The position numbers were made by a program, and so were the translations under genes. DNA of 64,000 nt from a virus. Lineage: Duplodnaviria; Caudoviricetes. The notes below the pieces were generated by a model. That model was not told the origin of the DNA. It saw only the letters and a program-made list of their open reading frames with translations, and searched no databases. The stretch is taken from IMG/VR virus record IMGVR_UViG_3300034375_009028; one strand, written 5' to 3'. Positions 14,910 to 59,028 of the stretch are shown here, piece after piece (position 1 is the stretch's first letter; the number at the start of each line of letters is the position of its first letter).

Positions 14910-15080
14910 TTATTTTCCTCCAGAGGTAAATTGAGTGTGTGGATTTTTAGTTTTGTTTGCTATGATTACTTTACTACCATCATGAGTGAATACTAGTTCA
15001 TCCTCATGATCCCAACAAAGTTCTTCATATAGAGCATTTAAACGTGACATGTCCTCATAAAGTGCATTTGGATTAGGCAT
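14910..15080 (-). CDS. hypothetical 56-aa protein (not in ORF track)
   Basis: MPNPNALYEDMSRLNALYEELCWDHEDEL...; fills the gap between the peroxiredoxin and hli. Confidence 0.65.
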   Translation of the reverse strand: MPNPNALYEDMSRLNALYEELCWDHEDELVFTHDGSKVIIANKTKNPHTQFTSGGK

Positions 15081-23879: not shown

Positions 23880-23882
23880 AAT

Positions 23883-24488: not shown

Positions 24489-24495
24489 TTAACAA

Positions 24496-36600: not shown

Positions 36601-39600
36601 CCTTGGAGACCTTGGTTGCCCTGGTTTCCTTGATTACCTTGATTACCCTGGTTACCTTGATTACCCTGGTTACCTTGGAGACCTTGGTTGCCCTGGTTAC
36701 CTTGATTACCTTGGTTACCTTGGAGTCCTTGGAGACCTTGGTTACCTTGAACACCTTGAGGTCCTATAAACGAGAAGCTAATGAATACTGTATCGTTATT
36801 AGAGAAGTTTCCAGAAGATGCATAGAATTGGGTAATGTCAAATGAGAACCATCCAGTAGCACCACCAGTTTGTAATTGAGTATTACCAACAACAAACAAA
36901 TGATATTGGGATGCATCAACAGGATCTACAATCTTAACAAGAGCTTGTCTCTCTAGAATTCCATAGTTCTCAATATCTGCAAGGAAGTCTGACAGATCAG
37001 TTCCACCACTATCAGTGTTGGCAATGTACAACTCAGTTGCACTAGACTGAGTTGAGAAATTATCAAATCTTAATCTTCCAGATCCAGGATTTGCTGCACC
37101 TGTTGAAGAACTGAATGTATAAACATAAGTAGTTTCAGCATTTCTACCACTAAGACCTTGGTTACCTTGTAAACCTTGTGTACCTGTTTTAGTGAAGAAT
37201 ACTGTTAATTCTTGTCCATTAGAAGGAAGAGATCCAGTTAAATAGTTTACTGGAATACTATAATAAGAACCATTATCAGATACAGAACCATCTACTTCAA
37301 AGATAATACTTGTGTTTGTAGAAGAATCTGAGGTAGTAATATAAATGTATCCACGATTCTCTCCAACATTAACTTGAGTATCGTCCCAAGTATCATACCA
37401 AGCGGTTTGATCTATTCCAAATAGATCTGTATCATCAAAATAAAGTGTAGTTGCGTTTGCAATAGCTGGACTATCAAATCTTAATACCCCTTGACCACCA
37501 GAACCTGCTGCGGTAGTAGTATCAAACTCATAAGGAATACCACCACGGTCTCCAAGCATACCCTGCAGACCTTGGTTTCCTTGAAGTCCCTGATTACCTT
37601 GATTACCCTGGTTACCTTGATTACCTTGGTTGCCCTGGTTACCTTGGTTACCCTGCAATCCTTGATTACCTTGGTTACCCTGGTTGCCTTGGTTACCTTG
37701 AAGACCTTGGAGACCTTGGAGACCCTGTAATCCTTGGTTGCCCTGGTTACCCTGGTTACCCTGGTTTCCTTGGTTGCCTTGATTACCCTGGTTACCCTGG
37801 TTACCTTGTAGACCTTGAATACCTGTCTTTGTAAAGAAGATGGTTATATCTTGTGCATTAGAAGGAATATTACCACTCAAATAAGTAACAGGTATTTCCT
37901 GATAATCAGTTTGGTCTGTTATTGCCCCAGTTACTTCAAATATTGCACTAACATTAGTTGCAGAATCTGCTGAGGTAATATAAATGTATCCCCTACCTTC
38001 TCCAGCAATAACTTGAGTATCATCCCAATTTGCAACCCAAGCAGAGTGATCTACTCCAAAGATATCATTATCATCAACATATATTTGAGTTACACTACCA
38101 ATGGTACTATTATTAAATCTAAAATCTCCATCACCTGAAGATCCAGATCCAGTAGCAGTATTAAATCTATAAGGAATACCACCACGGTCTCCAAGCATAC
38201 CCTGGTTACCTTGTAAACCTTGATTACCCTGGTTTCCTTGGTTGCCTTGATTACCCTGGTTGCCCTGGTTACCTTGGTTGCCTTGATTACCCTGTAGACC
38301 TTGGAGACCTTGGAGACCTTGTAAACCTTGATTACCCTGGTTGCCCTGATTACCTTGGTTACCTTGATTACCTTGGTTACCCTGATTACCTTGGTTGCCT
38401 TGAAGTCCCTGGTTACCTTGGTTACCTTGGTTACCCTGATTACCTTGGTTGCCTTGGTTGCCCTGGTTACCTTGGACACCCTGAGTTCCACTCTTAGTGA
38501 ATAGTACCGTTACTTCTTGACCATTTGAAGGAATATCACCACTTACATAAGTTACAGGAACAGTCCAATAAGTAGTGTTATCTATTACAGCATCATCAAC
38601 ATAGAATATAGAAGTTACATTACCACCAGAATCTGCCGAGGTTACATAGAGGTATCCACGATTTAGTCCAGCATTTAACTGAGTATCGTCAAATGTATCG
38701 TACCAACCAGTTTGATCAGATCCAAAAGAATCTGTATCATCAAAATATAATTCTGTAATATTTGCTGCGGTAGCATTGTTATACCTTAATGATCCTTGTC
38801 CACCCGTACCTGCTGTGGTAGTAGAATCAAAGTCATAACGAATACCACCACGGTCTCCAAGCATACCCTGGTTACCTTGGTTACCCTGATTACCTTGATT
38901 GCCCTGGTTACCCTGGTTACCCTGATTACCTTGGTTGCCTTGGTTACCTTGAAGACCTTGGAGACCTTGGAGACCCTGGTTGCCTTGATTACCTTGGTTG
39001 CCTTGATTACCTTGATTACCTTGGTTGCCCTGGTTTCCTTGTAAACCTTGAATACCAGTTCTACTATGGAACAGTGTTAAAATGTCACCATTAGAAGGTA
39101 ATGTACCAGTTACATACTCTACTGAAATTTTATAGTATCCAGATGCAACTTGATTAACACCATTAATTCTAAAAATGTTTACTGTAGTTCCAGATAAAAT
39201 ATCCGCAGAGATAAAGTATAAGTATCCTCTATCTGGATTCTCAGTATCATCCCAAACATCATACCAAGCAGTCTGATTATTACCAAGATCATCTAAGTTA
39301 TCAATATAAATTTGAGTAACTGAGTTTATTGCCGAGTTGTTATATGCAACATTACCATTTCCAGGATCTTGATCTGTTGTACTCTGAACCCATTCATAAC
39401 GAATACCTCCTCTATCACCAATACCACCCTGAAGACCTTGAAGTCCTTGGTTACCTTGGTTACCTTGGAGACCCTGGTTACCTTGGTTGCCTTGACGACC
39501 TTGGTTACCCTGGAGACCTTGAGCACCTACACCCTGTAATCCCTGGTTACCTTGTAGACCCTGTAAACCTTGTAGACCCTGTACACCTTGAGAACCTACA

Positions 39601-41863: not shown

Positions 41864-43975
41864 TTATGTAGACGTGAATGACATGGCAGTAATTGACTGC
41901 CCAGAGTTCAATCTCCAACGAATCAAAATGCGATTGTTTGAGTCATTAGATGAAGATTCTGTACCAAATACACATGTAAATGTTCCGCCAGAACCATTCA
42001 TTGCACCACCCGAAGAACATCCTGGTTCTGCTGATGTTGGTACACCAGCACCTCTATATGCTTGGAACATGTCTGCCCAACCATTAGTACCAGATAAAGA
42101 TGAAGTCCATGTAGAATTGTCGGGCATACATACCCAACATCCTGCATACGATCCACTAACTGCTATTCTAAATTCAGATACCTGAGATCTTATAAATTGC
42201 AATTGGAAATATTGTGCTCCAGTTCTACCAGAAGAATAATCTGGTCCTACTGGTAACCAAGATCCACTAGAATAATCTGTTTGATCATGCCTCAAAGCAC
42301 CTCCTCTAACAATAGATTCATATGCTGCTGCAGTAGTAGAAGCACTAAATGATGTGTAAACTGGTGTGGGATTATCTGCACTAGATCCAGCGTTCACTCT
42401 AACAGCATTTCCAGAACCAGTTCCTAAACTATTAACTGCAATGTTATCTTCATCAATAATATTAGTCCTTGCAGTTGTTCCCATCATATTGACTGCAGGA
42501 GTTATAGTTGCTCTTACTGTATCTGACCCATAAGGAGTTGTTGCAGTGTAGGTAGAGAATCTAGTAGCATCAGTATTAACTGTTTGATGAAGATCTCTAG
42601 GTGTTTGAGAAACTAAACATGTTACGCCAGTACCTACACCATAATTCTGAACTGGTGGATTAACACCTCCATCAAAATTAGTATAACTTTTACTTCCACC
42701 ATTTTGAAATCCAGTAGTTTGACCACTAGATGTCAGAAAGGTATTCTGAGTGTACATATCACCCGTAGCATTCTCACAAGTTATTACATAAGTAAATGCA
42801 TTGCTAGAATCTTGTGTGTAATGTGGTACACCAGAAGAATAATTCAAAGTTGGTGAAGGTGGTGTTACTGGAGTAGTAACACTTAAAACAGGTGCAGTGA
42901 CTGTACTTCCATCCTCATACCAATATGCCTGCTGGGTAGTATATGCAAACTGTTGAATGAATGCTTTATTAAATCCATCAGGACATGGAGCATTAATCAA
43001 TCTGGCATCATAAACTTCATAAAATTCAGAGTTAATCCCTGGATTTCTTGATGAGAAGAATGCATCTTTATTGTTTGCAATTTGCAAGGAACCATAGATG
43101 CCATCATTAGATCCAATGGATAAATCTGTAGTACCAACTCCAACAGCATTTACAAATCCAGTAACTGTTCCAGCATCTCCTGGACCATATTCTGTAATAT
43201 AATTTGAAGTAACGGTATTATCAGTATTTCTACTATATTGTGTACCTGCTGATGGCGTCAAATCACCATCAGTATTGTTAGTAGGATTAAATCCTGAACA
43301 CAATCTTCCAACACCAGTCAACCCAGTCAAAGAGAATGGTTCATTTAAAATAGTTGCTGGTGGTTTTGGAACCAATTTCCCTAGAATAAAATTAATTTCA
43401 TTCACAGAGTCTTTGGTATAATCTCCAGTCTCAATTCCAACTGCTCCAGGTAAGAAACCAGCAGATGGGGTTCCAATAACTTGATCACCAAAAAATTCCG
43501 ATGCAGTTACAAATCCAGTAACTCTAACATCACCATCTACGGTTAATTTCTTATCTGCATCTGGATTGGTTAAACCAATACCAACACTCTTTGTTTGAGG
43601 AACGAATACAAAATCTTCATTAGAAGCAAATGATGTAACAACGCCTGTTGTTGCAGTTACAAATCCAATAAATTGTGGTGCAGTTCCTTGAGGATCTGAT
43701 AATTTATCGGTAATTAGATTTTTTAATTTTGATCCATCACCATAATATTCGGTTGCAGTAACTACTCCAACTACTTCAAGATCATTAGATACAACAATAT
43801 CTGAGGCGGTTAGGACCCCAGATATTGTCGCATCTCCTTGTACAGATAACTCCGCTGATGCATAGGTTGTGCCAATTCCGACCCGTCCAGTTACTTCAAG
43901 TACTGTTGAGTCGTCGGTATAAGAAGCTATACCTATTCTAAGATTTTTCTTGCGTTCGCTTAAAAATTTTGACAT
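41864..43975 (-). CDS. virion structural protein A1 (paralog of 57010..59028)
   Basis: Shared INFILGKLVPKPPAT and WTSSLSGTNGWADMFQAYRG blocks; late promoter AATAAATA at 44047-44040. Confidence 0.75.
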   Translation of the reverse strand: MSKFLSERKKNLRIGIASYTDDSTVLEVTGRVGIGTTYASAELSVQGDATISGVLTASDIVVSNDLEVVGVVTATEYYGDGSKLKNLITDKLSDPQGTAPQFIGFVTATTGVVTSFASNEDFVFVPQTKSVGIGLTNPDADKKLTVDGDVRVTGFVTASEFFGDQVIGTPSAGFLPGAVGIETGDYTKDSVNEINFILGKLVPKPPATILNEPFSLTGLTGVGRLCSGFNPTNNTDGDLTPSAGTQYSRNTDNTVTSNYITEYGPGDAGTVTGFVNAVGVGTTDLSIGSNDGIYGSLQIANNKDAFFSSRNPGINSEFYEVYDARLINAPCPDGFNKAFIQQFAYTTQQAYWYEDGSTVTAPVLSVTTPVTPPSPTLNYSSGVPHYTQDSSNAFTYVITCENATGDMYTQNTFLTSSGQTTGFQNGGSKSYTNFDGGVNPPVQNYGVGTGVTCLVSQTPRDLHQTVNTDATRFSTYTATTPYGSDTVRATITPAVNMMGTTARTNIIDEDNIAVNSLGTGSGNAVRVNAGSSADNPTPVYTSFSASTTAAAYESIVRGGALRHDQTDYSSGSWLPVGPDYSSGRTGAQYFQLQFIRSQVSEFRIAVSGSYAGCWVCMPDNSTWTSSLSGTNGWADMFQAYRGAGVPTSAEPGCSSGGAMNGSGGTFTCVFGTESSSNDSNNRILIRWRLNSGQSITAMSFTST

Positions 43976-44415: not shown

Positions 44416-44757
44416 TCAGTTGAGTGTTTCTAGAACAGATACAATCAATTTTAGATCTGTATTTGTACTTCCTTTTACCATAAGTGTATCGCCTTGTTCC
44501 ATAACCAACTTACCTGCAAGCAGGTTAGCGGAATCATTACCAGGAATTGGGAACTGATTAAACAGTTCTGTTGTCACTGCAATACCTGCTTTTGTTCTTC
44601 TGTGGGATACGCTAATGTCTTGACTAGACGCTCCGATATTTGATGCTTGTGCCAGGAGGAGAACCCCCGTGTATCCCACGGGAGCTGTATAGATTCCTAC
44701 TGGAGACTGAGATACAACGTTCGTAATCGTTTTGAATACGTTAAGGGCTAGTGCCAT
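44416..44757 (-). CDS. small beta-rich virion-associated protein
   Basis: 113 aa, 3 nt after the giant gene; GKLVMEQGDTL..SVLE pattern common in cyanophage structural clusters. Confidence 0.7.
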   Translation of the reverse strand: MALALNVFKTITNVVSQSPVGIYTAPVGYTGVLLLAQASNIGASSQDISVSHRRTKAGIAVTTELFNQFPIPGNDSANLLAGKLVMEQGDTLMVKGSTNTDLKLIVSVLETLN

Positions 44758-44760: not shown

Positions 44761-47700
44761 TTACTCTCCTCCGAGTGCGAGAATGAATGGGGTTAGGGTG
44801 GAGAACAACGACTTAGAATATGACGTTCCAGAGATTGTTCCTGTGTTTTGGTTAATAATCAGTCCATCACCGATCTTGAAGTTACCTGACTGGTCAGTAC
44901 TGGTGAAGACCACCAGACCACCATTCAGATTCACGGTTTCATTTTCTGGGATTGTAACTCCTCCATTTTGTGGTAATGCTGTCTTGACATTGATTCCAGA
45001 ACCAATGTATTCAAATGCGTGTGATGAAGCAAGAACTCTGGACTGCTTATAGAAGTAAACATCCATTCCAACTCCAACATCATATGGAACCTGGGTGTCA
45101 AATGTGACGGTAGAGATTCCAGTTACCTTATCGGGTAATGTTGCCTTCGATACTGTGAAGTATGAAGGATAGATAGAAGGAACAATTCTTGCCTGGACAC
45201 CACCAGCTCCTTGTGGAGCAGCGATGCTTACTGCAGGAGGAACAACGAATCCTCTACCACTGGATACAACCTCAACAGAGATGACTGAACCGTTTTCAAC
45301 GGTTGCAATCGCCTGCGCGGGAACACCCCACTCAGTTGTTGGATCCGCAATTGTTACCTCAGGAGTCTCGGTATAACCGCTACCACCGTTGGTAACTTGG
45401 ATCTTATCAAGTTGATAATATAACTTATCAAAGACTGCTACCTGACCGTCAAATGGTCTCTGGGCATTGATTTGAACAGTACCACCAGAACCTGGAGTAT
45501 AGTAGTGAGCGAATGGTCCCTTACCAACGTTAGCGGTAAAGAATGTAGACGCTGCAGAGATTCTAACTGGTGATGGTTCACCCTTCAGGATCGCGTCAGT
45601 AGCAATTCCGATCAGGTTATCAATTGTATCCTGAACATTCTGACATGCCTCAGGAGTATTGTTTGAACCGTATGCTGCGTCATCAAGGAGATCGAAGTTC
45701 TTATTGTTGAGTTGGTTATTGATTGCCAACTGCATGTAGTCTGCAGATGCGCGGAACGCAGTTACAGTTTCAACTTCTTCACCAAGTAGACCCTTAGCAA
45801 GTGGTTCACCTTCTTCATCGAAGTAGTAATTAACCGCAGCGATTGTATTCGCGTTAGTTGAATTTTCTAGGTCATCGCGAACAGATGTTACAAAGTATCC
45901 GATATCTCTTCTGCACTTATTCTCTTGATCAAGGAACGATCCTGGATTATCTACGTAGTTGTCTAGAGTTGTAAGAGTACCAATTCCAATAGACTCGGTA
46001 ATGATTCCGATTCTGTTAGAGATGAAGTCTTGTACATCTTGACATGCATCAGGATTACCCGATCTTGTATAAACAACTGTGTAACCACCAGATCCGTAAA
46101 CTTCAGGTCCGAATGTTAGTGTTAGATCCTTCGCGTAGAGTTGGTTAGATACTGCCTTCGCCATTAGATCGCCAGCAGCGATAAATGCCGTTACAGATTC
46201 TGTCTTCTCTGCGTTTAGACCAGGAGTAATTGGTCTTCCGTTTCCATCGAAGTATTGTCTTGCGAAGTCCTTGGAGTAAGTGTTACCACCAACGAATACG
46301 TCAGTTGCAACAGCATCAACAAGGTATCCAATATCTCTTGCACACTTGTAACCACCTGGGGAAGAAGTAGTTCCGAGTCCGACCAGATCACCTGCGGTTG
46401 TTCCGAATCCAACAGTTTGTCCAAACTCACCGAGGTTGAGTGTGAAGTAACCTTCAGTAACTCCGATTGTTCCATCGTACAGGTCAGAGGTGTTACCAGC
46501 TCCGATGACTGTTGTGATGATTCCAACCAAGTTATCAATGTTACCTTGGACATCCTGACAGGTATTTTCGTTACCAGAAGCAGTGTAGGTAACGATTCCA
46601 ACGCCACCATAGTTTGCAGGACCAGTTGATAATGTCAGATCCTTACGATAGAGTTGGTTAGTGATAGCATCCTTCATGAACTCACCAGAGTATCTGAATG
46701 CTGTCAGTGAAGGTACTTCTTCACCTTCTAGACCACCTCTGATCTTGGTTCCGTCTGCGTAGTAATACTGCTCAGAGAATCCTCTGGAGTAGATATTACC
46801 GCCACTGAATACGTCAGTTGCAACTGCGTCGATGAGGAATCCAAGGTCTCTTGCACACTTGTAACCACCTGGGTTCTCAGTGCTTCCGATTCCACTTGCT
46901 CTATCAAAGATACCAGTGTTGTATGTGAGACCCGAGAGCGAAGCAGTTGTTCCAGCGCCAAGTGCGACTGTTACAATGCCAACCAGAGTATCAACGTTAT
47001 CCTGAACATCCTGACATGCGAGAGCGTTACCAGAGATGAATACGGTATGTGCAACTCCAGGTCCACCATAAGTAGCAGGACCAGAAGAGATTCCAACATC
47101 CTTTCTATAGAGTTGGTTAGTGAGAGCATCCTTCATGAACTCACCAGCACCGCCAAGACCAACAACAGTTGGAGCAACTTCTCCACCGTCGATGTAAACT
47201 GCTCCAGACTCATTGAAGTATTGGAGAGTAAACTCTTGAGAGTACTTGTTACCAGCGATGAATACGTCAGTTGAGACCGCATCAACGAAGAATCCAATGT
47301 CTCTTGCACACTTATAACCACCTGGGGTTGTAGCGCCAGCAGAGACGCTCTGATCAAAGATACCGCCAGTGATAGTTGGAAGACCAGTGGTATTTCCTGC
47401 AGCAACAGTTGCTGTAACAATGCCAGTCAATGTATCAACTTGGTCTTGAATGTCAAGACATGCGGTAGGATCAGTGTTAGTTACATCAGATCCAACTCCG
47501 AAGTATGTTCCACCTGCGGAGACGGTAAGATCAGAGTATGCTGCACCAACCAAGTTGTTGGTAAGTGCGTTCTTCATGTACTTAGCTGCTGCTTGGAAGA
47601 CGAAGATTGACTCATCTTCTTCACCAACTAATCCACCAGTGATTGGGTTACCAGCACCATCAAAGTATTGGAGAGTAAACTCTGTAGCATACTTGTTAGC

Positions 47701-50700
47701 ACCAATAAGTACGTCAAGGGAGATAGCATCGATGAAGAATCCTGTGTCTCTCTTACACTTATCTTCGACTGCACTGAAGTTGAATGCATTGAAGTTTGGA
47801 TTGTTTACAGCATCTGTAAATGCAAGTCCAACAATTACATCCTTATTCAGTTGGATCATTCTGTATGCATCATAGAATCTAGATCTTGCATTTTCTTCCA
47901 GATCACCTGGGAAGAAGAATGTATCATATGCATCATATCCTTGAGCGATAGAACCGATAGATCTATCAATTACTTCCTGTCTGTTCTGTTGAATCAGGCG
48001 GTAAGAATCGAAGTATCTATACTGCTCATCATCTCTTTCATCAAATCCCTTATTAACAACTGGGAGTGAAGTTGTTGTTCCAAGTCCGACAGCGACAGTT
48101 GCGATGCCTACAAGGTTCTCAATGAAGTTTTGTACATCTGCACAAGAATCAGGATTTCTGTTGTCTCCAGTTACCCAATCAGGCGAGAGTGTCAAATCTT
48201 GAGCATTAAGTTGGTTGGTAACTGCTGCTCTTGAGAGATCTCCGAATGCAGTGAATGCAGTTACAGATTCAGATTCTTCACCAAGGAGTCCGTTGGTGAT
48301 TGGGTTACCTGCTCCATCGAAGTAGGAGAGGGCGAATCCAACAATGTTCTTGTTACCACCAGTGTAAAGGTCTCCAGCAACCGCGTCAGCAAGGTAACCA
48401 AGGTCTCTAGCACACTTGAATCCACCTGGGGATGAAGTTGTTCCGATACCTGCCTGATTGAAGTAACCTTCATTCAGAGTTGGTAATCCAGTTGTAGCAC
48501 CTGCACCGATCGCGACTGTAACAATACCAACGATAGTGTCGATATTATCCTGAACATCTTGACATGCATTTGCATTTCCAGAAGGAAGAACTGCTTCTGA
48601 AGTACCACCACCAACGTAGGTAGCAGGACCAGAGGAGATTCCAACATCCTTACGGTTGAGTTGGTTAGTAACTGCCTTCTTAGCGAGATCTGCAACAAAG
48701 TCAAATGCAACGATAGAAGGAGCTTCTTCACCAAGTAAACCATTTGTAGTTGGGTTACCAGCACCATCGAAGTAGAACAGTGTGAAGTCTCTGGAGTAGC
48801 TGTTGCCACCTGTGAATACGTCGATCGCGAGCGCGTCAACAAGGTATCCAACGTCTCTAGCACACTTAACACCACCTGGAGTTGTATTACCAAATCCAGC
48901 AGTATTTTGAATAGTTAACTTAGTGAATGGATCAGTGTTGATAAGGAAGTTACCCTTAGTTTCAGCAGGAAGTGAAGTGGTTGTTCCAAGTCCAACTGCA
49001 ACGGTTGCAATACCTACAAGGTTCTCAATTGCTGCCTGTACATCAGTACAAGCCTCAGCATTACCTGAGAGGAGAACAGGAATATTACCGCCAGGACCAT
49101 TAAATGCTGCCTTACCAGAGGAGATTCCAACATCCTTAGCATTCAGTTGGTTGGTAATTGCCTGCTTCATGTATCCAGAGGCAGATTCGAAGGCAATCAG
49201 TGATTGTGCTTCTTCGCCTACAAGACCATTGGAGATTGGGTTACCAGCACCATCGAAGTAAAGGAGTGAGAAGTCTCTAGTATATGTGTTACCACCTGCG
49301 TGAATATCAGTTGAGACTGCATCAACAAGGAATCCGAGGTCTCTAGCACACTTGAATCCACCTGGGGATGAAGTTGTTCCGATACCTGCGGTTACATCAT
49401 AGTAACCAGAGTTGATTGATGTTGGAGCATCTGCAAATGTTGCGGTTGTTCCAAGTCCAACTACAGCAGTAACGATTCCAACCAGGGTATCAACGTTATC
49501 CTGAACATCTTGACAGGAGTTGATATTTCCAGAAGGAAGAACAGGGATGTCTCCACCTGCGCCACCATAAGTAGCAGCACCAGAAGAGATTCCAACATCC
49601 TTTCTATAGAGTTGGTTGGTCAATGCCTTCTTAATAAGTCCACCAGCAGCGATAAATGCACTGTTCGAAGGAGCTTCTTCGCCAGCAAGTCCACTTGTAA
49701 TCCATCCACGATATGCTGGTTCGTAAGACTTGACTGAATCAGTAGTTGCTCTTACAAATGTGTGAGCGGACTGAGGAAGATGCTTAACAGCACCTGCATC
49801 TGCACTTACGAATTGATGTGTTGTTTGTGGCTCGTGACGGATAGCGTTACCCTCTGCGTAAACAAAGGTGTGAACAGATCCAGCAGCGATTCCTGCATCA
49901 CCAACATTAATTGTAAATGTTCCTGTCTGCTTCTTAAGTCCATTAGCAGTTGCACTTACGAAGGTGTGAGCACCAGTGTAAGAAGATGCGCCAATGTTGA
50001 TCTTAAATGTATTTGGAGTTACTTCAGAGATTTCTAACCAACGACCAGATGCATAATCATATCCAGCGCGAGGATATGCTTTAGATACTGTATTATCATC
50101 AAGTACACATGTGAAGGTCAAAGAAGCATCGTCAAGTTTGATATAATCTCCTTTAGTGAATCCATGAGATGCAACTGTAAGTACTACATCACCAGATGCA
50201 GCATCATATGTTGCGTTAGTTACTGTGTGGGTAGACATTCCAACAGCAGTAATTGATGTAGATACTCCAGAGATTGGATCAGTTGAACGTGGATATGAAT
50301 GCTGAGTAGCATTACCATCTTGGTCGCAAGTAAAGACGAATGAATTATCCTCAAGGATAACTCCACGTCCAACTCCAAGACCATGCTGACCAACAGTAAC
50401 TGTTAAATCACCAGTCGCTGCATTATAATCAGCAGCAGTTGGAGTAAAGTACTTGTTAGGACCAGAAGCACCAACGTTAACTGTTAAAGTATCCGAAGTT
50501 ACTGAAGTAATCTTAACTGATCTACCTGCAAATGGATCAATTCCAGGACGTGGATAAGTCTTCTGTGCTTGGAATCCATCCATTGCACAACTAAATGTGA
50601 AGGAATTATCCTCGATGATAACACCCTCTCCAACACTCAGTGAGTGCTCACCAACAGTAACTGTAAAGTCACCTGTTGCTGGATCATAAGTAGCAGCAGT

Positions 50701-53700
50701 TGGGTTGAATGACCAGTCAGTACCAGAAGCACCAACATTAACTGTGAATGAAGTTGCGCTTGTTCCAGTGATTGTTAATCCATTGGTGTAAGCTAATTGA
50801 CCAATGGTTGGCAGAGAGTGCTCTGTCTTATTACCATCCATTGCACAAGTGAAGGTGAATCCTTCCTTGTCAAGATAGATAACATCATTGGTTTGGAGTG
50901 GGTGACCAGCTCCGATGATTGCAGTGAAGTCTCCAGTTGCTGGATCATAAGTAGCATCGGTTGGTTTCCAACCTGCAGCAGCCTTGAACTGGTTACGTAA
51001 GAATCCTGCAGCGTATGCATTACCACCAGTGAACAGGTCAGTGGAGATTGCATCAACAAGGAATCTAATGTCTCTACCACAAGTAAATCCACCTGGGGAG
51101 AATGTGCTGATTCCTAAAGATTGATTAAACTCTCCAAGATCAAGAGCACCTGTAGTAGTTGGAAGTTGACCTGTTGTTCCAAGACCTACAGCAACAGTGA
51201 CGATACCGACCAAGGAATCGATGTTATCTTGTACATCTAGACATGCATTTTCATTACCAGATCTTAGTACAGGAATGTTTGTTGAACCAACACCAAAGTA
51301 TGCAGTACCAGAAGAGATTCCAACATCCTTATTAAAGAGTTGGTTGGTGATTGCATCCTTCATGTACTCACCAGCAGCTTCAAACGCTACGATTGATGGA
51401 CCTTCCTCACCGAGGAGACCATTAATGATTGGAGCAGCGTTATCGAAGTATTGGAGTGCAAATCCATCAGAGTAGTAGTTACCTGCGGTAAAGAGGTCAA
51501 TCGAGATAGCATCGATAAAGAATCCAGTATCTCTAGCACACTTGAATCCACCTGGGGATGAAGTTGTTCCGAATCCAACAACTGGAGTACCAGCATCAGA
51601 AGCAACAAAGTATCCTTGGTTAATGGTTGCGGTTACATCACCAGCGGTTGCAGTAGTTCCGAGACCAACAACAGAAGTAACAATTCCTACGAGAGTGTCG
51701 ATTGTATCCTGAACATCTTGACATGCATCAGCATTACCAGATTGGTATACAGTATATGCAATACCAGGACCATTGTAAACAGCAGGACCAGAGGAGATTC
51801 CAAGGTTCTTTGTATACAGTTGGTTGGTGATCGCATCCTTCATGAACTCACCAGCGCCGATGAATCCATACAGTGACTGAAGCTCTTCTTCATAGAGACC
51901 TTCACCAATTGGTTGACCAGTTCCGTCATCAAAATACTCAAGGATAAACTCTCTAGAGTAAACGTTACCTCCAGTGAATACGTCAGTTGAGACAGAATCG
52001 ATAAAGTATCCAATGTCTCTTGCACACTTGAATCCACCAGGGGTGCTGGTAGTTCCAATTCCTGCTTGAGCAAAGTAACCTACGTTTCTTGTTGCTGCAA
52101 ACGAACCTGTTTGCTCATTAGCAATTGCCTCAGTAATGATTAATACCAGAGTTGCAATTGTGTCTTGAACATCTTGACATGCAGCAGAGTCGCTATTTGA
52201 AGAAGCGCCAGGTGCTGTAGTGATTCCAGCATCAGTATATGAGAGGTTATTTGTGATTGCCTCATACATCTTATCACGCGCTTGATTGAAGGCGTAGATA
52301 GATTGTACTTCCTCACCATCAATACCATTTGTAATCAGCTGATTATTTGCGAAGTATTGAAGTGTGAAGTCTTGTGAGTATGAGTTACCACCAGTTAAAA
52401 CGTCGAGTGATACTGCATCAACGAAGTATCCAAGGTCTCTCTTACACTTAGTCTCAGTTGAGAGAATTGCAGGATACTGGTTTCTTGTTGCAAGCCAAGC
52501 AGCGTTAACAATATCAGTCTTATTCTTTTGAATCAGACGATATGAATCATAATATCTGGATCTTGCATTAGTTACATCGTCACCAGGGAATACCCAATCA
52601 GTTGGATATTGATCATAGTTAACAACAATGTTACCAATTGATCTATCAATCAGTTCTCTTCTATTTGTCTGGATCAGACGATAGGAGTCAAAGAATCTTG
52701 ATCTTGCGTTGGTGTACTCATCACCTGGGAATGCAAATGTCTTACCGACACCAGCACTGACGTGATAATCAAGTGCAATTGCTGCCAGGGACTTATCAAC
52801 AATTTCCTGTCTGTTCTGCTGAATCAGACGATATGAATCATAGAATCTTGATCTACCTGTTGTCTGGTCATCACCAGGGAAGTAGAAGTCTGGGTGATCA
52901 ATAGCAATAGCACCGAGAGACTTATCAATGATCTCCTGCTTGTTCTGTTGAATCAGACGATAAGAATCAGCGAATCTTGAACGTGCATTGGTTTCAAGAT
53001 CTCCTGGGAAGTAGAACTGATCATAGTTTAATGCTACAGAAGCAAGAGACTTATCAACGATTTCTTGCTTGTTCTGCTGGATTAAACGATAAGAATCATA
53101 GAATCTTGATCTTGATGTGGTCTCAGTATCTCCTGGGAAGAGGAAATAATCGAACATATCATACTTGAAGGAGATTCCTGCAAGTGCCTTATCAACAATT
53201 TCCTGCTTGTTATCGAGAATCAAACGATATGAATCAAAGAATCTTGATCTTTCGTTTGTTTCTGGATCATCTGGGAAGAAGAAGTCTGGGTGATACAGAG
53301 AAATAGTAGCAAGAGACTTATCAATAAGTTCGTCTCTATTAGCATTAACAAGATTATATGAATCTTTAAATCTATTTCTGCTAGAATCTGGGAAGTAGAA
53401 GTCAGGATTCTCTAATGAGATAGAAGCAAGTGATCTATCAATGATTTCCTGCTTGTTCTGTTGGATCAGACGATAAGAATCAAAGAATCTTGATCTTGCA
53501 TTTGTCTGAAGATCATTAGGGAAGTAGAAGTCTGGATGATTTACAGAGATCTCAGCAAGTGATCTATCAACAATTTCCTGCTTGTTCTGTTGAATCAGAC
53601 GATATGAATCGTAGAATCTTGAGGAAGCATTAGTTTGTGCTTCACCTGGGAAGTAGAAATCAGGGTGCTTGAATGCAATAGAAGCAAGAGACTTATCAAG

Positions 53701-54852
53701 AATCTCAGTTCTATTTGCTTCAATCGACTCACTAGCATCTACATATCTACCAGGAGCAACTGTTCTTGTCTCAAAAATGTATCCATAGTTACCAGTTGGA
53801 TACTCAAGTTGAGTAGCTCCACCATCAGAATCACATGTGAATCCAAGACCAGCGATGGTAACTCCCATACCAACGCTTAACTTATGCTCTCTATCGAGAA
53901 CAAATGTACCAATACCTGTTCTAAAGTCGTACTTAGCATCAACGACATTCATTACAGGAGCGTTTGCATCAACTTTAATCTTAAAGACAGATGCATCAAC
54001 TCCAGCTGCAGTGGTTACAATACCAGTATACTTGAGAGGTCCAACGCCATCAGCGACAAGACCGAAGTTACCGAATGATGAGTTAGAGTTGGTAAGGTCG
54101 CAAGCACCACCTGACTGACAAAGGATTGCGGTATCTGAACAGATGGTGAACATGGACACCAACTGAGCGAATGCTTCGTTGAAGATCTTAGCGCCTAAAC
54201 CACCTGGGTTAATCTGGGTATAGGAGTCAAGAACCATGGACTTAATAGGTCCAATAGCATATTCACCATCAATATTCAGACCAATTGTGCCTGGAATAAA
54301 GTTGGTGCAGTTTTGAATATATGGCGACTGATCAATATAAGGAACAACTTCTGGGTTAAATGTAACAATAGCACCATTAGACTTTTGCTCAGGTCCAATG
54401 AATGACATTTCTGCAATGTAGCATCCATTGTCTAACCAGAACAAGTCTCCTTGATTTTTTGGAGTAACCGTAACTTCACGAAGTGAGTCTCCAACGACTG
54501 ATACGTTATCGGGAAGTACGATTGGGTTATCTTCTAGATAAACTCCAGCACTAATTTTAATAACTGTTCCTGGGACAGACTCTGCGACGGCAGCTTTAAT
54601 GGTTCTTTTTGCGTCTCCGAGTTTCTTACCTGTGTTGTTGTCGTTACCATCTTGCGTTACATATAGGACATTTATTACCGTTGCTCCAGCACCGACTCTA
54701 ACGATGTCCGTTCCAATGCCAGGACGTTCTCTAGCAATGTAAATCTCGCCATCATTAGTGTTGATGGCGATTTCACCTAATGGAAGGTCAGAAACTGACG
54801 GTATTTTGTTTGGTACAGAAGATCTTTTAAATCTAATCTTAGGATTTGCCAT
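44761..54852 (-). CDS. giant (3363 aa) tail-fibre-like protein: gp37-like N-terminus, beta-helix, 12 nested phycobiliprotein-like domains
   Basis: IRFKRSS..P..S.LPLGEIAINTND resembles the T4 gp37 N-terminus; pectin-lyase-like start (LYVTQDG...IKISAGVY); 12 CxRD repeats; TATAAATA upstream. Confidence 0.8.
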   Translation of the reverse strand: MANPKIRFKRSSVPNKIPSVSDLPLGEIAINTNDGEIYIARERPGIGTDIVRVGAGATVINVLYVTQDGNDNNTGKKLGDAKRTIKAAVAESVPGTVIKISAGVYLEDNPIVLPDNVSVVGDSLREVTVTPKNQGDLFWLDNGCYIAEMSFIGPEQKSNGAIVTFNPEVVPYIDQSPYIQNCTNFIPGTIGLNIDGEYAIGPIKSMVLDSYTQINPGGLGAKIFNEAFAQLVSMFTICSDTAILCQSGGACDLTNSNSSFGNFGLVADGVGPLKYTGIVTTAAGVDASVFKIKVDANAPVMNVVDAKYDFRTGIGTFVLDREHKLSVGMGVTIAGLGFTCDSDGGATQLEYPTGNYGYIFETRTVAPGRYVDASESIEANRTEILDKSLASIAFKHPDFYFPGEAQTNASSRFYDSYRLIQQNKQEIVDRSLAEISVNHPDFYFPNDLQTNARSRFFDSYRLIQQNKQEIIDRSLASISLENPDFYFPDSSRNRFKDSYNLVNANRDELIDKSLATISLYHPDFFFPDDPETNERSRFFDSYRLILDNKQEIVDKALAGISFKYDMFDYFLFPGDTETTSRSRFYDSYRLIQQNKQEIVDKSLASVALNYDQFYFPGDLETNARSRFADSYRLIQQNKQEIIDKSLGAIAIDHPDFYFPGDDQTTGRSRFYDSYRLIQQNRQEIVDKSLAAIALDYHVSAGVGKTFAFPGDEYTNARSRFFDSYRLIQTNRRELIDRSIGNIVVNYDQYPTDWVFPGDDVTNARSRYYDSYRLIQKNKTDIVNAAWLATRNQYPAILSTETKCKRDLGYFVDAVSLDVLTGGNSYSQDFTLQYFANNQLITNGIDGEEVQSIYAFNQARDKMYEAITNNLSYTDAGITTAPGASSNSDSAACQDVQDTIATLVLIITEAIANEQTGSFAATRNVGYFAQAGIGTTSTPGGFKCARDIGYFIDSVSTDVFTGGNVYSREFILEYFDDGTGQPIGEGLYEEELQSLYGFIGAGEFMKDAITNQLYTKNLGISSGPAVYNGPGIAYTVYQSGNADACQDVQDTIDTLVGIVTSVVGLGTTATAGDVTATINQGYFVASDAGTPVVGFGTTSSPGGFKCARDTGFFIDAISIDLFTAGNYYSDGFALQYFDNAAPIINGLLGEEGPSIVAFEAAGEYMKDAITNQLFNKDVGISSGTAYFGVGSTNIPVLRSGNENACLDVQDNIDSLVGIVTVAVGLGTTGQLPTTTGALDLGEFNQSLGISTFSPGGFTCGRDIRFLVDAISTDLFTGGNAYAAGFLRNQFKAAAGWKPTDATYDPATGDFTAIIGAGHPLQTNDVIYLDKEGFTFTCAMDGNKTEHSLPTIGQLAYTNGLTITGTSATSFTVNVGASGTDWSFNPTAATYDPATGDFTVTVGEHSLSVGEGVIIEDNSFTFSCAMDGFQAQKTYPRPGIDPFAGRSVKITSVTSDTLTVNVGASGPNKYFTPTAADYNAATGDLTVTVGQHGLGVGRGVILEDNSFVFTCDQDGNATQHSYPRSTDPISGVSTSITAVGMSTHTVTNATYDAASGDVVLTVASHGFTKGDYIKLDDASLTFTCVLDDNTVSKAYPRAGYDYASGRWLEISEVTPNTFKINIGASSYTGAHTFVSATANGLKKQTGTFTINVGDAGIAAGSVHTFVYAEGNAIRHEPQTTHQFVSADAGAVKHLPQSAHTFVRATTDSVKSYEPAYRGWITSGLAGEEAPSNSAFIAAGGLIKKALTNQLYRKDVGISSGAATYGGAGGDIPVLPSGNINSCQDVQDNVDTLVGIVTAVVGLGTTATFADAPTSINSGYYDVTAGIGTTSSPGGFKCARDLGFLVDAVSTDIHAGGNTYTRDFSLLYFDGAGNPISNGLVGEEAQSLIAFESASGYMKQAITNQLNAKDVGISSGKAAFNGPGGNIPVLLSGNAEACTDVQAAIENLVGIATVAVGLGTTTSLPAETKGNFLINTDPFTKLTIQNTAGFGNTTPGGVKCARDVGYLVDALAIDVFTGGNSYSRDFTLFYFDGAGNPTTNGLLGEEAPSIVAFDFVADLAKKAVTNQLNRKDVGISSGPATYVGGGTSEAVLPSGNANACQDVQDNIDTIVGIVTVAIGAGATTGLPTLNEGYFNQAGIGTTSSPGGFKCARDLGYLADAVAGDLYTGGNKNIVGFALSYFDGAGNPITNGLLGEESESVTAFTAFGDLSRAAVTNQLNAQDLTLSPDWVTGDNRNPDSCADVQNFIENLVGIATVAVGLGTTTSLPVVNKGFDERDDEQYRYFDSYRLIQQNRQEVIDRSIGSIAQGYDAYDTFFFPGDLEENARSRFYDAYRMIQLNKDVIVGLAFTDAVNNPNFNAFNFSAVEDKCKRDTGFFIDAISLDVLIGANKYATEFTLQYFDGAGNPITGGLVGEEDESIFVFQAAAKYMKNALTNNLVGAAYSDLTVSAGGTYFGVGSDVTNTDPTACLDIQDQVDTLTGIVTATVAAGNTTGLPTITGGIFDQSVSAGATTPGGYKCARDIGFFVDAVSTDVFIAGNKYSQEFTLQYFNESGAVYIDGGEVAPTVVGLGGAGEFMKDALTNQLYRKDVGISSGPATYGGPGVAHTVFISGNALACQDVQDNVDTLVGIVTVALGAGTTASLSGLTYNTGIFDRASGIGSTENPGGYKCARDLGFLIDAVATDVFSGGNIYSRGFSEQYYYADGTKIRGGLEGEEVPSLTAFRYSGEFMKDAITNQLYRKDLTLSTGPANYGGVGIVTYTASGNENTCQDVQGNIDNLVGIITTVIGAGNTSDLYDGTIGVTEGYFTLNLGEFGQTVGFGTTAGDLVGLGTTSSPGGYKCARDIGYLVDAVATDVFVGGNTYSKDFARQYFDGNGRPITPGLNAEKTESVTAFIAAGDLMAKAVSNQLYAKDLTLTFGPEVYGSGGYTVVYTRSGNPDACQDVQDFISNRIGIITESIGIGTLTTLDNYVDNPGSFLDQENKCRRDIGYFVTSVRDDLENSTNANTIAAVNYYFDEEGEPLAKGLLGEEVETVTAFRASADYMQLAINNQLNNKNFDLLDDAAYGSNNTPEACQNVQDTIDNLIGIATDAILKGEPSPVRISAASTFFTANVGKGPFAHYYTPGSGGTVQINAQRPFDGQVAVFDKLYYQLDKIQVTNGGSGYTETPEVTIADPTTEWGVPAQAIATVENGSVISVEVVSSGRGFVVPPAVSIAAPQGAGGVQARIVPSIYPSYFTVSKATLPDKVTGISTVTFDTQVPYDVGVGMDVYFYKQSRVLASSHAFEYIGSGINVKTALPQNGGVTIPENETVNLNGGLVVFTSTDQSGNFKIGDGLIINQNTGTISGTSYSKSLFSTLTPFILALGGE
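45580..53748 (-). repeat. phycobiliprotein-like repeats (12 helix-B segments and 12 helix E-H segments)
   Basis: CxRD Cys codons at 52444, 52024, 51538, 51079, 49348, 48862, 48412, 47755, 47308, 46855, 46342, 45913; each followed about 90-100 aa later by (A/S/T)C..VQ. Confidence 0.7.
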
Positions 54853-54886: not shown

Positions 54887-54894
54887 TATTTATA
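54887..54894 (-). promoter_or_regulatory. T4-type late promoter for the 3363-aa gene
   Basis: TATAAATA, 35 nt upstream of the ATG. Confidence 0.75.
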
Positions 54895-55471: not shown

Positions 55472-55987
55472 TCAATATTCTCCACCGTCAAAGTCGATTC
55501 TATTATCAAGATCAACATCAAGTTGATCAAGAAGCTCATCTGGAAGACCAGGCTCAATAGGATCTGTGACAGATGCTCTAAGAACTTCATCTGGATTCTT
55601 AACAGTATACTTGCCAGTAGATGCATCGTATATAATAATGTAGTTATTTTGCTCATTAGTAGAATCAACATCAGAAAGATTTCTGAATTGTGGAGAGACT
55701 ACATTACTGAAGTAATCAATAACCTCTTGTGGCAATCCAGGTTGATTTGGTTCAGATATAACTGCAGAAGATAATACTTGGTCTGGGTTAACAGACTTAT
55801 ATGTCGCTGTTGCAGAGTCATACATTAATACATACTGATCACTCTGATTTGACAAATCAACGTCTTGAAGATCTGCTAATTTTCTAGCCATAATTATTCC
55901 TGATCTTGTTGTGACATTGTACTTTCTTGTGGTCTTTGCTCCTACCGTTACTCCATAACTAATTGATCCTAGGATTCTATTACTCAT
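55472..55987 (-). CDS. virion structural protein with internal duplication
   Basis: Two L.DVD.....QY...YD......Y....PD.VL...V..P..PGLP.E units; ends DFDGGEY. Confidence 0.7.
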   Translation of the reverse strand: MSNRILGSISYGVTVGAKTTRKYNVTTRSGIIMARKLADLQDVDLSNQSDQYVLMYDSATATYKSVNPDQVLSSAVISEPNQPGLPQEVIDYFSNVVSPQFRNLSDVDSTNEQNNYIIIYDASTGKYTVKNPDEVLRASVTDPIEPGLPDELLDQLDVDLDNRIDFDGGEY

Positions 55988-56325
55988 CTGGTCGTGTCCT
56001 CCACAATTACAGTTCCAGTGATAACCCTAACAACAAAATCTAATTCAGTATTTTCAATAAAAATATCAAATTGATTTCTACCAGAAGGTAGAGTAGAAGT
56101 CATTGTTCTCCCCATAGATATATTAACTTCAGAGTCTGCAGTAGTAATTCCAACCTTAAATGGATACTCTTTGGGAGAAGATGGATGTTTTTTTAATATT
56201 GCTATTGCATTAGAATATAAGAGGTTCAATGGACCTCCATCATCGCCTGTTAAAAAGAAGGAAGATTCAAAATCAGTTCCTTTTTCTATGACTAGATTAA
56301 CTATGGAAGCCGAACCTGCTGTCAT
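55984..56325 (-). CDS. small beta-sandwich adaptor (BppU-like) virion protein
   Basis: LVIEKGTDF...PLNL...LPSGRNQFDI...VITGTVIV pattern. Confidence 0.55.
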   Translation of the reverse strand: MTAGSASIVNLVIEKGTDFESSFFLTGDDGGPLNLLYSNAIAILKKHPSSPKEYPFKVGITTADSEVNISMGRTMTSTLPSGRNQFDIFIENTELDFVVRVITGTVIVEDTTR

Positions 56326-57009: not shown

Positions 57010-59028
57010 TTAGGTATTTCTAAATGACAAAGTGTTGATCTGATTTCCAGAATTCAATTTAAATCTAACTAGAATTCTATTGTTAGCATCATTTGACGAT
57101 GACTCAGTTCCAAATACTGCAGTAAAGGTTCCTGTAGATCCTGTCATATTACCAGCAAATGCTGCTCCAGGAAGAGCAGTTGTTGGAATACCAGAACCAC
57201 GGTATGCTTGGAACATATCTGCCCAACCATTAGTACCAGATAAAGATGAAGTCCATGCAGGATTATCAGGCATACAAATCCAACATCCTGTATAAGAACC
57301 ATTAACTACAATTTCAAACTCAGAGACATTAGATCTTATAAACTGCATTTGAAAATATTGTGATCCTGTTCTACCTACAGAGTAATCTGGTCCAACTGGA
57401 AGATGACCTGTGGAATAATTTGTTTGGTCATGCTTCAAGTCTCCACCAACAACAACAGCTTCGTAGGTTGGCATAGTATTAGAAGCAACCCAAGTGGTAT
57501 AAACAGGAGTTGGATTATCCCCAGCAGATCCAGCATTTACTCTAACTGCATTTCCAGATCCAGTTCCCAAAGTTTGAACTAAAATATTATCTTCATCAAT
57601 CACATTTGTTCTAGCAGTTGTACCCATAATATTTACAATTTGTGGTATAGTCGCACGTACAACATCAGATCCATAAGGAGTTGATGCAGTATAGTTTGAA
57701 AACTTTTGGTTATCTGCAGTTACTCTAATATGAAGATCTCTAGGTGTCTGTGAAACTGTACAAGTAACTCCAACACCAACTCCAAAATTTCTTACTGGTG
57801 GATTAACTCCATTAGTAAAATCTGTATAAGATTTATTACCACCATTCTGGAATCCTGTAGTTTGTCCAGAAGAAGTTAAGAATGTATTGTTAGAATACAT
57901 ATCACCAGTTGCATTCTGGCAAATGATCTCATAAAAGAATGCATTGTTAGATGCTTGTGTATAATGAGGAATTCCAGAAGAATAATTAAATGTTGGTGAA
58001 GGTGGAGTTATTGGAGTTGTTGAGATTAGGACTGGTGCAGATACTGCACTCGGATCTTCATAGTACAAATATTTTTCAGACTCATAGATATTTGTATCTA
58101 CCTGATGTTGAATATATGCCATATTAAAGCCATTGGGTGAATTGGCATTTAATATTCTAGAATCATAAACCTCATAAAAATCCGATGCAATACCAGTATT
58201 TCTAGATGAGAAGAATGCATCTTTATCATTTAAGATTTCTAATGCACCATAAACTCCATCATCACTAGTAGCATCGTTAGTAATACTATTGTCTGGATTG
58301 ATGACATCGTTACTTGTCATCATTCTTTGCCCCTCAACACTGAAGTTGATCATTGCATTTACATTGCCTTGATCTCCAGGACCATACTCAGTTAACCAAG
58401 TAGAGGTAACTGAGTTGCTGGTATTTCTTGGGTATTGTGTTCCAGCAGAAGGAGAAAAAACACCAACAGTATTATTTGTAAACGCAAATCCAGAACAAAG
58501 TCTTGCAACTCCAAGTCCAACCAGATCCAAAGGTGCATTTAAAACTGTTGCTGGTGGTTTTGGAACTAGTTTACCAAGAATAAAGTTTATATCATTGATA
58601 GAATTTTTGGTAAAATCGTCAATCTCAATTTCAACTGCTCCAGGTTTAAATCCACCATCAGGTTCTCCAAACCTCAATGGACCATAGTATTCTCCAGCAG
58701 AAACAAAATTGTTAACATCTACATAGTCCCTAAAAATTGTAGGACCATTTACATCTAAATCTCTTTCTGGAGATGCTGTGGTATTACCAATAGATACCTT
58801 TCCCCTAAAGCTACTAACTCCAGAGACAACAGTATCATTTGATTTGAGAGTAGTATCAACATTTAAAACTCCAGAAACTAAACCATCTCCCTGAACGTGG
58901 AAGTCTGACTTAGCTTCTGAAGTTTTTATACCGACATTACCAGTTACCTGAAGAGCAGTTTCATTGTCAGTATATGAGGCAACACCTACTCTTAGTTTTC
59001 TGTTTAGTTGACTTAAGTATTTTGCCAT
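57010..59028 (-). CDS. virion structural protein A2 (paralog of 41864..43975)
   Basis: Colinear with A1; late promoter AATAAATA at 59078-59071. Confidence 0.75.
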   Translation of the reverse strand: MAKYLSQLNRKLRVGVASYTDNETALQVTGNVGIKTSEAKSDFHVQGDGLVSGVLNVDTTLKSNDTVVSGVSSFRGKVSIGNTTASPERDLDVNGPTIFRDYVDVNNFVSAGEYYGPLRFGEPDGGFKPGAVEIEIDDFTKNSINDINFILGKLVPKPPATVLNAPLDLVGLGVARLCSGFAFTNNTVGVFSPSAGTQYPRNTSNSVTSTWLTEYGPGDQGNVNAMINFSVEGQRMMTSNDVINPDNSITNDATSDDGVYGALEILNDKDAFFSSRNTGIASDFYEVYDSRILNANSPNGFNMAYIQHQVDTNIYESEKYLYYEDPSAVSAPVLISTTPITPPSPTFNYSSGIPHYTQASNNAFFYEIICQNATGDMYSNNTFLTSSGQTTGFQNGGNKSYTDFTNGVNPPVRNFGVGVGVTCTVSQTPRDLHIRVTADNQKFSNYTASTPYGSDVVRATIPQIVNIMGTTARTNVIDEDNILVQTLGTGSGNAVRVNAGSAGDNPTPVYTTWVASNTMPTYEAVVVGGDLKHDQTNYSTGHLPVGPDYSVGRTGSQYFQMQFIRSNVSEFEIVVNGSYTGCWICMPDNPAWTSSLSGTNGWADMFQAYRGSGIPTTALPGAAFAGNMTGSTGTFTAVFGTESSSNDANNRILVRFKLNSGNQINTLSFRNT

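Follow-up and report, generated by a model that had tools for sequence, protein, structure and literature searches.

Why would the tail fibre of a phage carry a dozen copies of the motif by which phycobiliproteins (PBPs) hold their bilin pigments? The question is raised by a 64,000-nucleotide stretch of viral DNA (Duplodnaviria; Caudoviricetes; IMG/VR record IMGVR_UViG_3300034375_009028), here called the window, in which a single open reading frame (ORF) at 44761..54852 on the minus strand encodes a giant fibre-like protein that we refer to as P0001. A model-made reading of the bare sequence (the original prediction) had drawn attention to positions 45580..53748, which are residues 368-3091 of this one ORF, and had proposed that they form 12 PBP-like domains with intact bilin-attachment sites. 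The explanation that we favour is that P0001 carries an array of PBP-derived globin domains, most of them split into distant pieces, on a fibre arm to which bilins may be attached; taken as a whole, we give this explanation a probability of about one half. Its parts differ in strength, and we argue them in turn.

The repeats themselves are beyond dispute. A regular-expression scan of P0001 recovers exactly 12 [K/T]-C-x-R-D motifs (K or T at residues 802, 942, 1104, 1257, 1834, 1996, 2146, 2365, 2514, 2665, 2836 and 2979), exactly 12 C-x-[D/N]-[V/I]-Q motifs that supply a second cysteine (residues 892 to 3070), and 12 DSYRL-type segments, 11 of them clear and one, at residues ~367-407, degenerate; all three counts agree with what had been claimed. 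The two cysteines of a unit are 90-102 residues apart, except in unit 4, where an insert of ~415 residues made of beta repeats extends the distance to 523. The DSYRL-type segments stand elsewhere, ten in tandem at residues 367-800 and two at residues 2268-2352, and contain no cysteine. Of the 34 cysteines of P0001, 24 belong to the motifs, four to the beta insert and six to the N-terminal domain. The 11 units that can be aligned are 33-46% identical and share 17 invariant columns, and the unit recurs in 946 cluster representatives (E ≤ 1e-3; 1.84 billion proteins), which are without exception large and contain as many as 35 copies; on both grounds the repeat pattern is far beyond chance.

The relatives to which sequence searches point are PBPs. 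PF00502 is the only meaningful Pfam match of P0001, at 34.9 bits for the whole protein (E 1.9e-8; cut-off 22.2). That score adds up paralogous repeats, and we therefore tested the wider family. Unit 1 is unusable as a query on its own (phmmer against the PDB gives PBP matches at E 0.2-0.7), and a profile of P0001's own units finds alpha-phycocyanins only, at E 0.02-0.7 and over ~30 residues. A profile built from 45 units of 44 other giant proteins, which are ~20% identical to unit 1, yields stronger matches and longer alignments: 43 PDB chains are found, all of them PBPs or PBP-derived, and the best, the alpha-phycocyanin CpcA (8iml_A; E 1e-4), has an alignment that spans helices B to E and puts the first cysteine of the unit on Cys84. 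The profile alignments to the PDB thus bear out the proposed correspondence of that cysteine to Cys84 of alpha-phycocyanin. Six of the 45 diverse units also match PF00502 singly, with a best E of 1.8e-5, and none of them matches any other family.

Structure models lead to the same relatives. The AlphaFold2 model of residues 754-925, which comprise unit 1 and the DSYRL-type segment that precedes it (65 sequences), has six helices, a predicted local distance difference test (pLDDT) value of 92.2 and a predicted template-modelling score (pTM) of 0.89. When it is searched with Foldseek, the top 50 PDB matches are all PBPs (template-modelling scores 0.54-0.67), mostly with a root-mean-square deviation (rmsd) of 3-4 Å over ~155-160 columns. 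In VIA-align, an aligner independent of Foldseek that was run on a library of 48,161 chains, PBPs take ranks 1-8 with Z scores of 12-15.5; ApcE (4xxi_A) is in the structural top three (Z 14.2, rmsd 2.0 Å over 116 residues), far-red allophycocyanin superposes with an rmsd of 2.2 Å over 122 residues, and RsbR-type, photocobilin and sensor globins follow below. For both aligners, PBPs are clearly above other globins. In the models the domain is a globin made of helices A-B-E-F-G-H without the X-Y hairpin of PBPs, since the units begin at helix A and no such hairpin is found in cis. The DSYRL-type segment forms two helices (12-23 and 25-39) that align to PBP helices A and B. The original prediction was thus right to see in these segments the missing N-terminal helices, which pair with the E-H units; its assignment of them to helix B alone did not hold. 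With profile searches that match PBPs only and models that match PBPs first, we consider it very probable that the units are PBP-type globins by homology as well as by fold.

If the fold is that of a PBP, the next matter is whether the residues that hold a bilin have been kept. We examined 1,422 copies, defined by hidden Markov models (HMMs), from 150 giant proteins. In the CxRD motif the Cys is conserved in 99%, the Arg in 97% and the Asp in 100% of the copies; other near-invariant residues are an Asp 11 residues after the motif Asp (99%), a Tyr 30 residues after the Cys (99%) and an Asn (84%). CXRD is the motif that binds bilin in PBPs and in the self-attaching bilin biosynthesis-associated globins (BBAGs) BBAG-1 and BBAG-3, its Cys bonding covalently to ring A while the Arg and Asp hydrogen-bond the chromophore (PMC10151467). 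The second cysteine is of narrower occurrence. About 370 of the 1,422 copies include the last helix (H), and ~60% of those have the second Cys, which is conserved in at least 90% within the P0001 subfamily; typical distant relatives have one Cys per repeat of 108-160 residues (in the relative P0015, 27 Cys for 22 repeats). Alignment range ends, with an ungapped last helix assumed, place this second Cys on position 165 of a 184-residue phycoerythrin (PE) beta chain, position 158 of a 177-residue PE beta chain and position 153 of a 172-residue phycocyanin (PC) beta chain, which agrees with the claim that it lies at this beta-subunit site, just before helix H. These positions are second bilin sites, the targets of T-type lyases; CpcT serves Cys-beta153/155 (PMC2327270). 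We also considered a disulfide between the two cysteines as the reason why the first is invariant, and rejected it, because most copies in the family keep the first Cys and have no second.

How the domains of P0001 are put together is less ordinary. In distant relatives a DSYRL-like helix pair lies directly upstream of CxRD in every unit; in P0001 this is so for units 1 and 8 only, and the other ten domains are split. If an orphan A/B segment is written as '(', an orphan E-H unit as ')' and a unit with its own A/B pair in cis as '[]', P0001 reads ((((((((([]))))))([])))), a balanced and nested string. Other architectures, such as ((([])))(([])), (((([])))) and ((([])))((((([]))))), are likewise balanced and nested, with a cis unit at each turn. 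The number of A/B segments follows the number of CxRD units across homologue architectures (12/12, 10/10, 7/7, 5/5, 4/4 and 3/3); where other architectures fall short by one to several A/B segments, HMM misses are the likely cause. When the order of the elements was shuffled in eleven strings, P ranged from 0.17 for the shortest to <5e-6, and six of the eleven fell below 0.01; this null is naive, because tandem duplication alone yields runs, and the equal counts are the stronger point.

The models suggest how the pieces may come together. The '([])' hairpin of residues 2268-2655 (75 sequences) is modelled by AlphaFold2 with a pLDDT of 91.0 (91-98 in the orphan hairpin) and a pTM of 0.91, and VIA-align matches it to PBP beta chains with Z scores of 16-17.2 and an rmsd of 2.2 Å over 140 residues. 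Most PDB matches are to the cis domain; ApcE aligns to residues 1..370 of the hairpin model (139 aligned residues; Z 11.6), a span that is expected if an orphan A/B segment and an orphan E-H unit make up one globin unit. Residues 1-7 of PBP beta chains align from residue 24-26 of the model onwards, and the second helix of the orphan A/B segment is thereby placed, with the cis domain as reference, where PBPs have their N-terminal X/Y helices; because of this position, the contact from rung to rung may mimic the alpha/beta protomer interface. In a separate complex prediction, an orphan A/B segment meets an orphan E-H unit at helices E and G and the start of helix H, with both cysteines among the contacts and the invariant Arg, Asp and second Asp outside the interface. 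We think it probable that the domains form such a split, nested zipper. The chain would run out and back, rebuild one globin domain per rung and in this way yield a branched arm, in which a stem of three domains bears branches of seven and two.

The frame that holds this arm can be recognised in P-SSM2. PSSM2_293, a fibre-like protein of 617 residues, aligns by BLASTP with residues 1-340 (52% identity, E 3e-107) and with residues 3102-3363 (52% identity, E 3e-71) of P0001. Since PSSM2_293 thus flanks the array on both sides and has 22 residues between the two matching stretches, we are confident that the whole array of 2,760 residues was inserted into one fibre loop, in a beta repeat of ~85 residues. 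The two ends of such an insertion must meet, as the balanced bracket string predicts. The original prediction had proposed a T4 gp37-like N-terminus; the N-terminal module is common to annotated tail-fibre proteins (tblastn; BLASTP), and P0001 has fibre-type neighbours as well (an assembly-like ORF, a collar-like ORF and a collagen-repeat giant). A candidate for the proposed late promoter is TATAAATA; the motif occurs four times in the window and 5.6 copies are expected by chance, so that it is the position of the motif, 35 nt 5' of the fibre-gene ATG, and not its count that speaks for it. As judged from its sequence, P0001 is a tail-fibre-like, late, predicted virion protein of a T4-like cyanomyovirus and an orthologue of PSSM2_293. 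Three parts of P0001 (N-terminal body, C-terminal domain, beta insert) gave no match when searched against PDB sequences, and a near-identity DNA search of phage records gave S-RIM44 as the sole match (6% matched at 71% identity).

We note two observations on this frame. The ~85-residue beta repeat, of the phrog_1276 type, is present in three places, namely as the host of the array (residues 300-366 and 3090-3115), four times within unit 4, and in a separate 113-residue ORF just downstream of the fibre gene (44416..44757, minus strand). In P-SSM2 (AY939844.2, 213709..216727) heme oxygenase is likewise encoded just 5' of the orthologue of the fibre gene, a single endonuclease gene lying in between.

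When 50,697 phage records were searched with three divergent domain queries, 70, 78 and 136 records matched, each of them either a phage of Synechococcus or Prochlorococcus or a marine single-cell virus record; among these phage records the domain occurs only in cyanophages. Adsorption of two such phages, S-PM2 and P-HM2, needs light and does so independently of host photosynthesis (PMC6628666). S-PM2 has 11 domain matches and P-HM2 has four, in giant structural ORFs, and the dark-adsorbing P-SSM2 has none. The automatic PF00502 labels on homologues are the sole existing record of the domain that we found, and our literature searches found no description of PBP-like domains in cyanophage fibres. 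We also note that in S-PM2 (NC_006820.1) RefSeq lists 16 tRNAs within the coding sequence of the giant 'short tail fiber' protein (165928..177267; both under locus tag S-PM2t009); they look like an annotation artefact, because a six-frame search finds a stop-free frame of 3,792 residues there.

A pigmented fibre would need a supply of pigment, and genes for one lie in the same window. On the strand of the fibre gene, ho1 is 4.7 kb upstream, and pcyA is 26.5 kb off, which is the type of gene association seen for BBAGs. With ho1, pcyA, a ferredoxin gene and cpeT in the window (Table 1), the phage encodes the synthesis of phycocyanobilin from heme together with a lyase. Fibre-type ORFs lie between the ho1-cpeT pair and the fibre gene; one of them (55984..56325) is tail-fibre-assembly-like. 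In S-PM2, S-RSM4 and ACG-2014j, which represent three genera, cpeT is the last conserved gene 5' of the giant gene with PBP repeats, at a distance of 0.3-1.4 kb and on the same strand, and in about 15 records among the matches listed cpeT is within ~1.5-4.4 kb of the domain matches. Heme oxygenase (HO), PcyA and CpeT are confined to cyanomyoviruses, the sole exception being PebS in one podovirus (PMC10452541), and the role of the bilin synthesis genes and T-type lyase of cyanomyoviruses has been called 'a mystery' (PMC3037559). This context (the ho1-cpeT pair, pcyA, petF, the synteny of cpeT and the restriction to cyanophages) makes pigmentation more plausible, if only circumstantially.

In the explanation that we favour, the arm would be loaded with its chromophore, either phycocyanobilin or a bilin from the host, as it assembles; there would be 12 to 24 such sites, and the phage itself would supply HO1, PcyA, ferredoxin and a T-type lyase. 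The bilin would staple the split domains, make the arm responsive to light, or both, and the candidate phenotype is the light-dependent adsorption of cyanomyoviruses. Because CxRD is present in every domain, the second cysteine probably lies at the beta-153/158/165 site, and the phage provides bilin genes as well as a T-type lyase, a chromophorylated arm is the most likely reading of these features; that a bilin is covalently bound to it we judge, from motif conservation, site mapping and gene context, to be close to an even chance and slightly short of one. It is rather improbable that adsorption is gated by light through the arm. Also unlikely is the fullest version of the idea, in which the side-arm is pigmented, the phage ho1, pcyA, petF and cpeT genes serve, at least in part, to pigment the structural proteins of the phage rather than the host antenna, and the arm acts as the light sensor in the adsorption of S-PM2 and P-HM2.

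Several observations weigh against a pigmented arm, and they are best considered with the explanations that compete with it. It is quite possible, to a lesser degree than bilin attachment, that the PBP-derived globin is a rigid building block of the fibre side-arm that never holds a chromophore, in which case CxRD and the additional Asp, Tyr and Asn would form a polar cluster for folding or docking the split halves and the bilin genes would serve the host antenna only, as is assumed at present. Those three near-invariant residues are indeed foreign to PBPs and could be purely structural; the fibre units have a much shorter B-E loop than PBPs, in which this loop lines the bilin pocket; the cost of 12 to 35 bilins on each chain would be high; and we know of no report of pigmented cyanophage particles or coloured virions. 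P-SSM2 has ho1 and, by the literature, a bilin reductase, yet it has no PBP-like domain, and so phage bilin genes do not need the domain. S-RIM2 and S-WAM1, which lack the giant gene (their PBP-like domains are elsewhere), keep cpeT at the same genome position, and so the synteny of cpeT may be inherited rather than functional. A purely structural role nevertheless makes it hard to explain why an unpaired Cys persists, in oxic seawater, in 99% of ~1,400 copies that are ~20% identical. Nor are the Arg, the Asp and the second Asp among the predicted docking residues, and it is exactly the bilin-contact triad (PMC10151467) that is conserved most. The restriction of the domain to phages of bilin-making hosts also speaks against a purely structural role.

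We regard as improbable the proposal that the cysteines serve redox, disulfide or metal chemistry (locks between the first and second Cys, links between chains, or metal sites) instead of bilin attachment. Metal sites occur in T4 fibres, and the proposal gains from the conservation of both cysteines in the P0001 subfamily and from their contacts with the A/B hairpin in the predicted complex, but it must contend with the many copies that have one Cys per ~108-160-residue repeat and no second, and with A/B hairpins that offer no Cys as a partner. The two cysteines, moreover, fall by range-end mapping on PBP positions 84 and 153/158/165, which in solved structures carry separate chromophores far apart from each other. 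More improbable by far is that the likeness to PBPs is convergent or an artefact of prediction, with an unrelated helical fibre repeat that contains KCARD by chance. To its credit, no single unit of P0001 exceeds the Pfam cut-off (the best reaches 18.6-18.8 bits, below 22.2, the whole-protein score being a sum over repeats), and many PBPs were in the training set of AlphaFold2. Against it, the profile from 44 highly divergent proteins matches PBPs more strongly and over a greater length than do P0001's own units; PF00502 is the sole Pfam family matched by any unit; and two aligners rank PBPs first. The complex prediction gave 0.57 for orphan A/B against orphan E-H, with 0.00 for the best control, and is rated as weak support; of 80 solved complexes 58 pass its mark, as do 2 of 110 mismatched pairs, and the passes at ≤0.60 comprise 7 of the 80 solved complexes and both mismatches. 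The correlation between domain and adsorption involves three phages and is anecdotal.

Table 1. Features of the giant fibre gene and pigment-related genes in the window.
Feature	Coordinates	Strand	Evidence or remark
Giant fibre-like gene P0001	44761..54852	-	single ORF, 3,363 aa; PHROG tail-fibre families phrog_4527, phrog_5342, phrog_17885
Late-promoter-like motif TATAAATA, T4-type	54887..54894	-	35 nt upstream of ATG
N-terminal fibre adaptor module, aa 1-62	54667..54852	-	tblastn: 99 phage records, mostly annotated tail-fibre; PSSM2_293 61% identical
Body shared with 617-aa P-SSM2 fibre-like protein, aa 63-340	53833..54666	-	stops inside ~85-aa beta repeat, at ...FTC strand
Insertion of ~2,760 aa, whole globin array, aa 341-3101	45550..53832	-	sits in one beta-repeat loop
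Ten DSYRL-type A/B hairpins in tandem, aa 367-800	52453..53754	-	last one in cis with unit 1
Unit 1, helices E-H, aa 801-925, Cys803 and Cys892	52078..52452	-	complete cis globin with preceding A/B hairpin
Orphan E-H units 2, 3 and first half of unit 4, aa 926-1296	50965..52077	-	motif scan, unit alignment
Four ~85-aa beta repeats within unit 4, aa 1297-1711, one Cys each	49720..50964	-	phrog_1276
Second half of unit 4 and orphan E-H units 5-7, aa 1712-2267	48052..49719	-	motif scan, unit alignment
A/B hairpins 11 (orphan) and 12 (cis with unit 8), aa 2268-2352	47797..48051	-	motif scan
Unit 8 (cis) and orphan E-H units 9-12, aa 2353-3100	45553..47796	-	motif scan, unit alignment
C-terminal fibre domain, aa 3101-3363	44764..45552	-	PSSM2_293 C-terminus; phrog_17885 profile positions 732-1001 of 1002
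cpeT/cpcT, T-type bilin lyase, 175 aa	59078..59605	-	PF06206 E 6e-38; 4.2 kb upstream of fibre gene
ho1, heme oxygenase, 231 aa	59602..60297	-	PF01126 E 1.4e-76; 3' end overlaps cpeT start by 4 nt
pcyA, phycocyanobilin:ferredoxin oxidoreductase, 236 aa	17544..18254	-	PF05996 E 3.6e-52; NF002760 equivalog 248 bits vs cut-off 206
petF, plant-type [2Fe-2S] ferredoxin, 97 aa, electron donor for PcyA and HO	15625..15918	-	TIGR02008 E 6e-47; phrog_844

Other genes of the window, all on the minus strand, complete the picture of the locus. A second giant ORF (27606..41843; 4,745 residues) has 33 Pfam collagen triple-helix stretches (E 6e-245), and directly downstream of it is a tail-fibre/collar-like ORF of 208 residues (26980..27606). 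Two paralogous ORFs of ~700 residues, both phrog_8578 (function unknown), flank the fibre gene at 41864..43975 and 57010..59028; the latter stands between cpeT and the fibre gene. At 20-26 kb is an island of low GC content (0.28-0.31, against ~0.39 elsewhere). It encodes GT2 and GT11 glycosyltransferases and several FkbM-type methyltransferases (18682..25853), and a sulfotransferase is encoded at 63229..63831; the island genes and the sulfotransferase look like a glycan-modification cassette. The window also encodes a peroxiredoxin (Redoxin/AhpC-TSA; 15073..15597), a LOG/lysine-decarboxylase-like protein (3620..4186), a staphylococcal-nuclease homologue (11652..12110) and a phage tail lysozyme (14026..14685).

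From this work, PBP-type globin domains that bear CxRD emerge as a building block in wide use among the baseplate and fibre proteins of cyanomyoviruses. They make two questions testable, namely why cyanomyoviruses, including those of Prochlorococcus, carry bilin genes and a T-type lyase, and what causes the light-dependent, photosynthesis-independent adsorption of some of them. If the explanation that we favour is true, the virion may be both pigmented and able to sense light. With or without pigment, split domains that are apparently re-zipped along a branched, there-and-back loop insert are of interest for protein folding and design.

Among known systems, the closest in fold are the PBPs themselves (PF00502; alpha-phycocyanin CpcA by sequence, PE and PC beta chains by fold). 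The fibre units share with them the globin helices A-B-E-F-G-H, the K-C-x-R-D-x-G-Y sequence at the start of helix E, a G-G turn at equal spacing and, by range-end mapping, a Cys just before helix H as in beta subunits. They differ in having no X-Y hairpin in cis, a short B-E loop and the extra invariant Asp, Tyr and Asn; neither alpha/beta heterodimers nor (alpha-beta)3 discs are in evidence, and the domains occur 12 times (up to 35 times in relatives) in one predicted virion polypeptide, most of them split into distant pieces. BBAGs are, as the fibre domains may be, PBP paralogues outside the light-harvesting antenna, and BBAG-1 and BBAG-3 have CXRD; their genes lie near those for heme oxygenase and a ferredoxin-dependent bilin reductase, and they attach bilin without lyases (PMC10151467). 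They are, however, cellular proteins, small and with a single domain, that occur in heterotrophic bacteria and in some cyanobacteria, whereas P0001 is a viral structural array. ApcE (LCM), the core-membrane linker, offers a different parallel, as a PBP-like domain, interrupted by a loop, within a large multidomain protein; it attaches its bilin autocatalytically (PMC2327270), is in the structural top three, and is also the chain that aligns across a split domain of P0001. Unlike P0001 it has one PBP domain, with the bilin at another Cys position, and is a cellular component of the phycobilisome. Within the phages, PSSM2_293 provides the orthologous frame, with ho1 just upstream in both P-SSM2 and the phage studied here, but lacks the globin array entirely, as the P-SSM2 genome lacks any copy of the domain. 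The same PBP-like CxRD repeats are found in the giant 'short tail fibre' or structural proteins of S-PM2 (T4-GC 734), S-RSM4 and ACG-2014j and in gp7 of P-HM2, which differ from P0001 in their N- and C-terminal frames, their copy numbers and their bracket strings, and whose units are ~40-45% identical to those of P0001.

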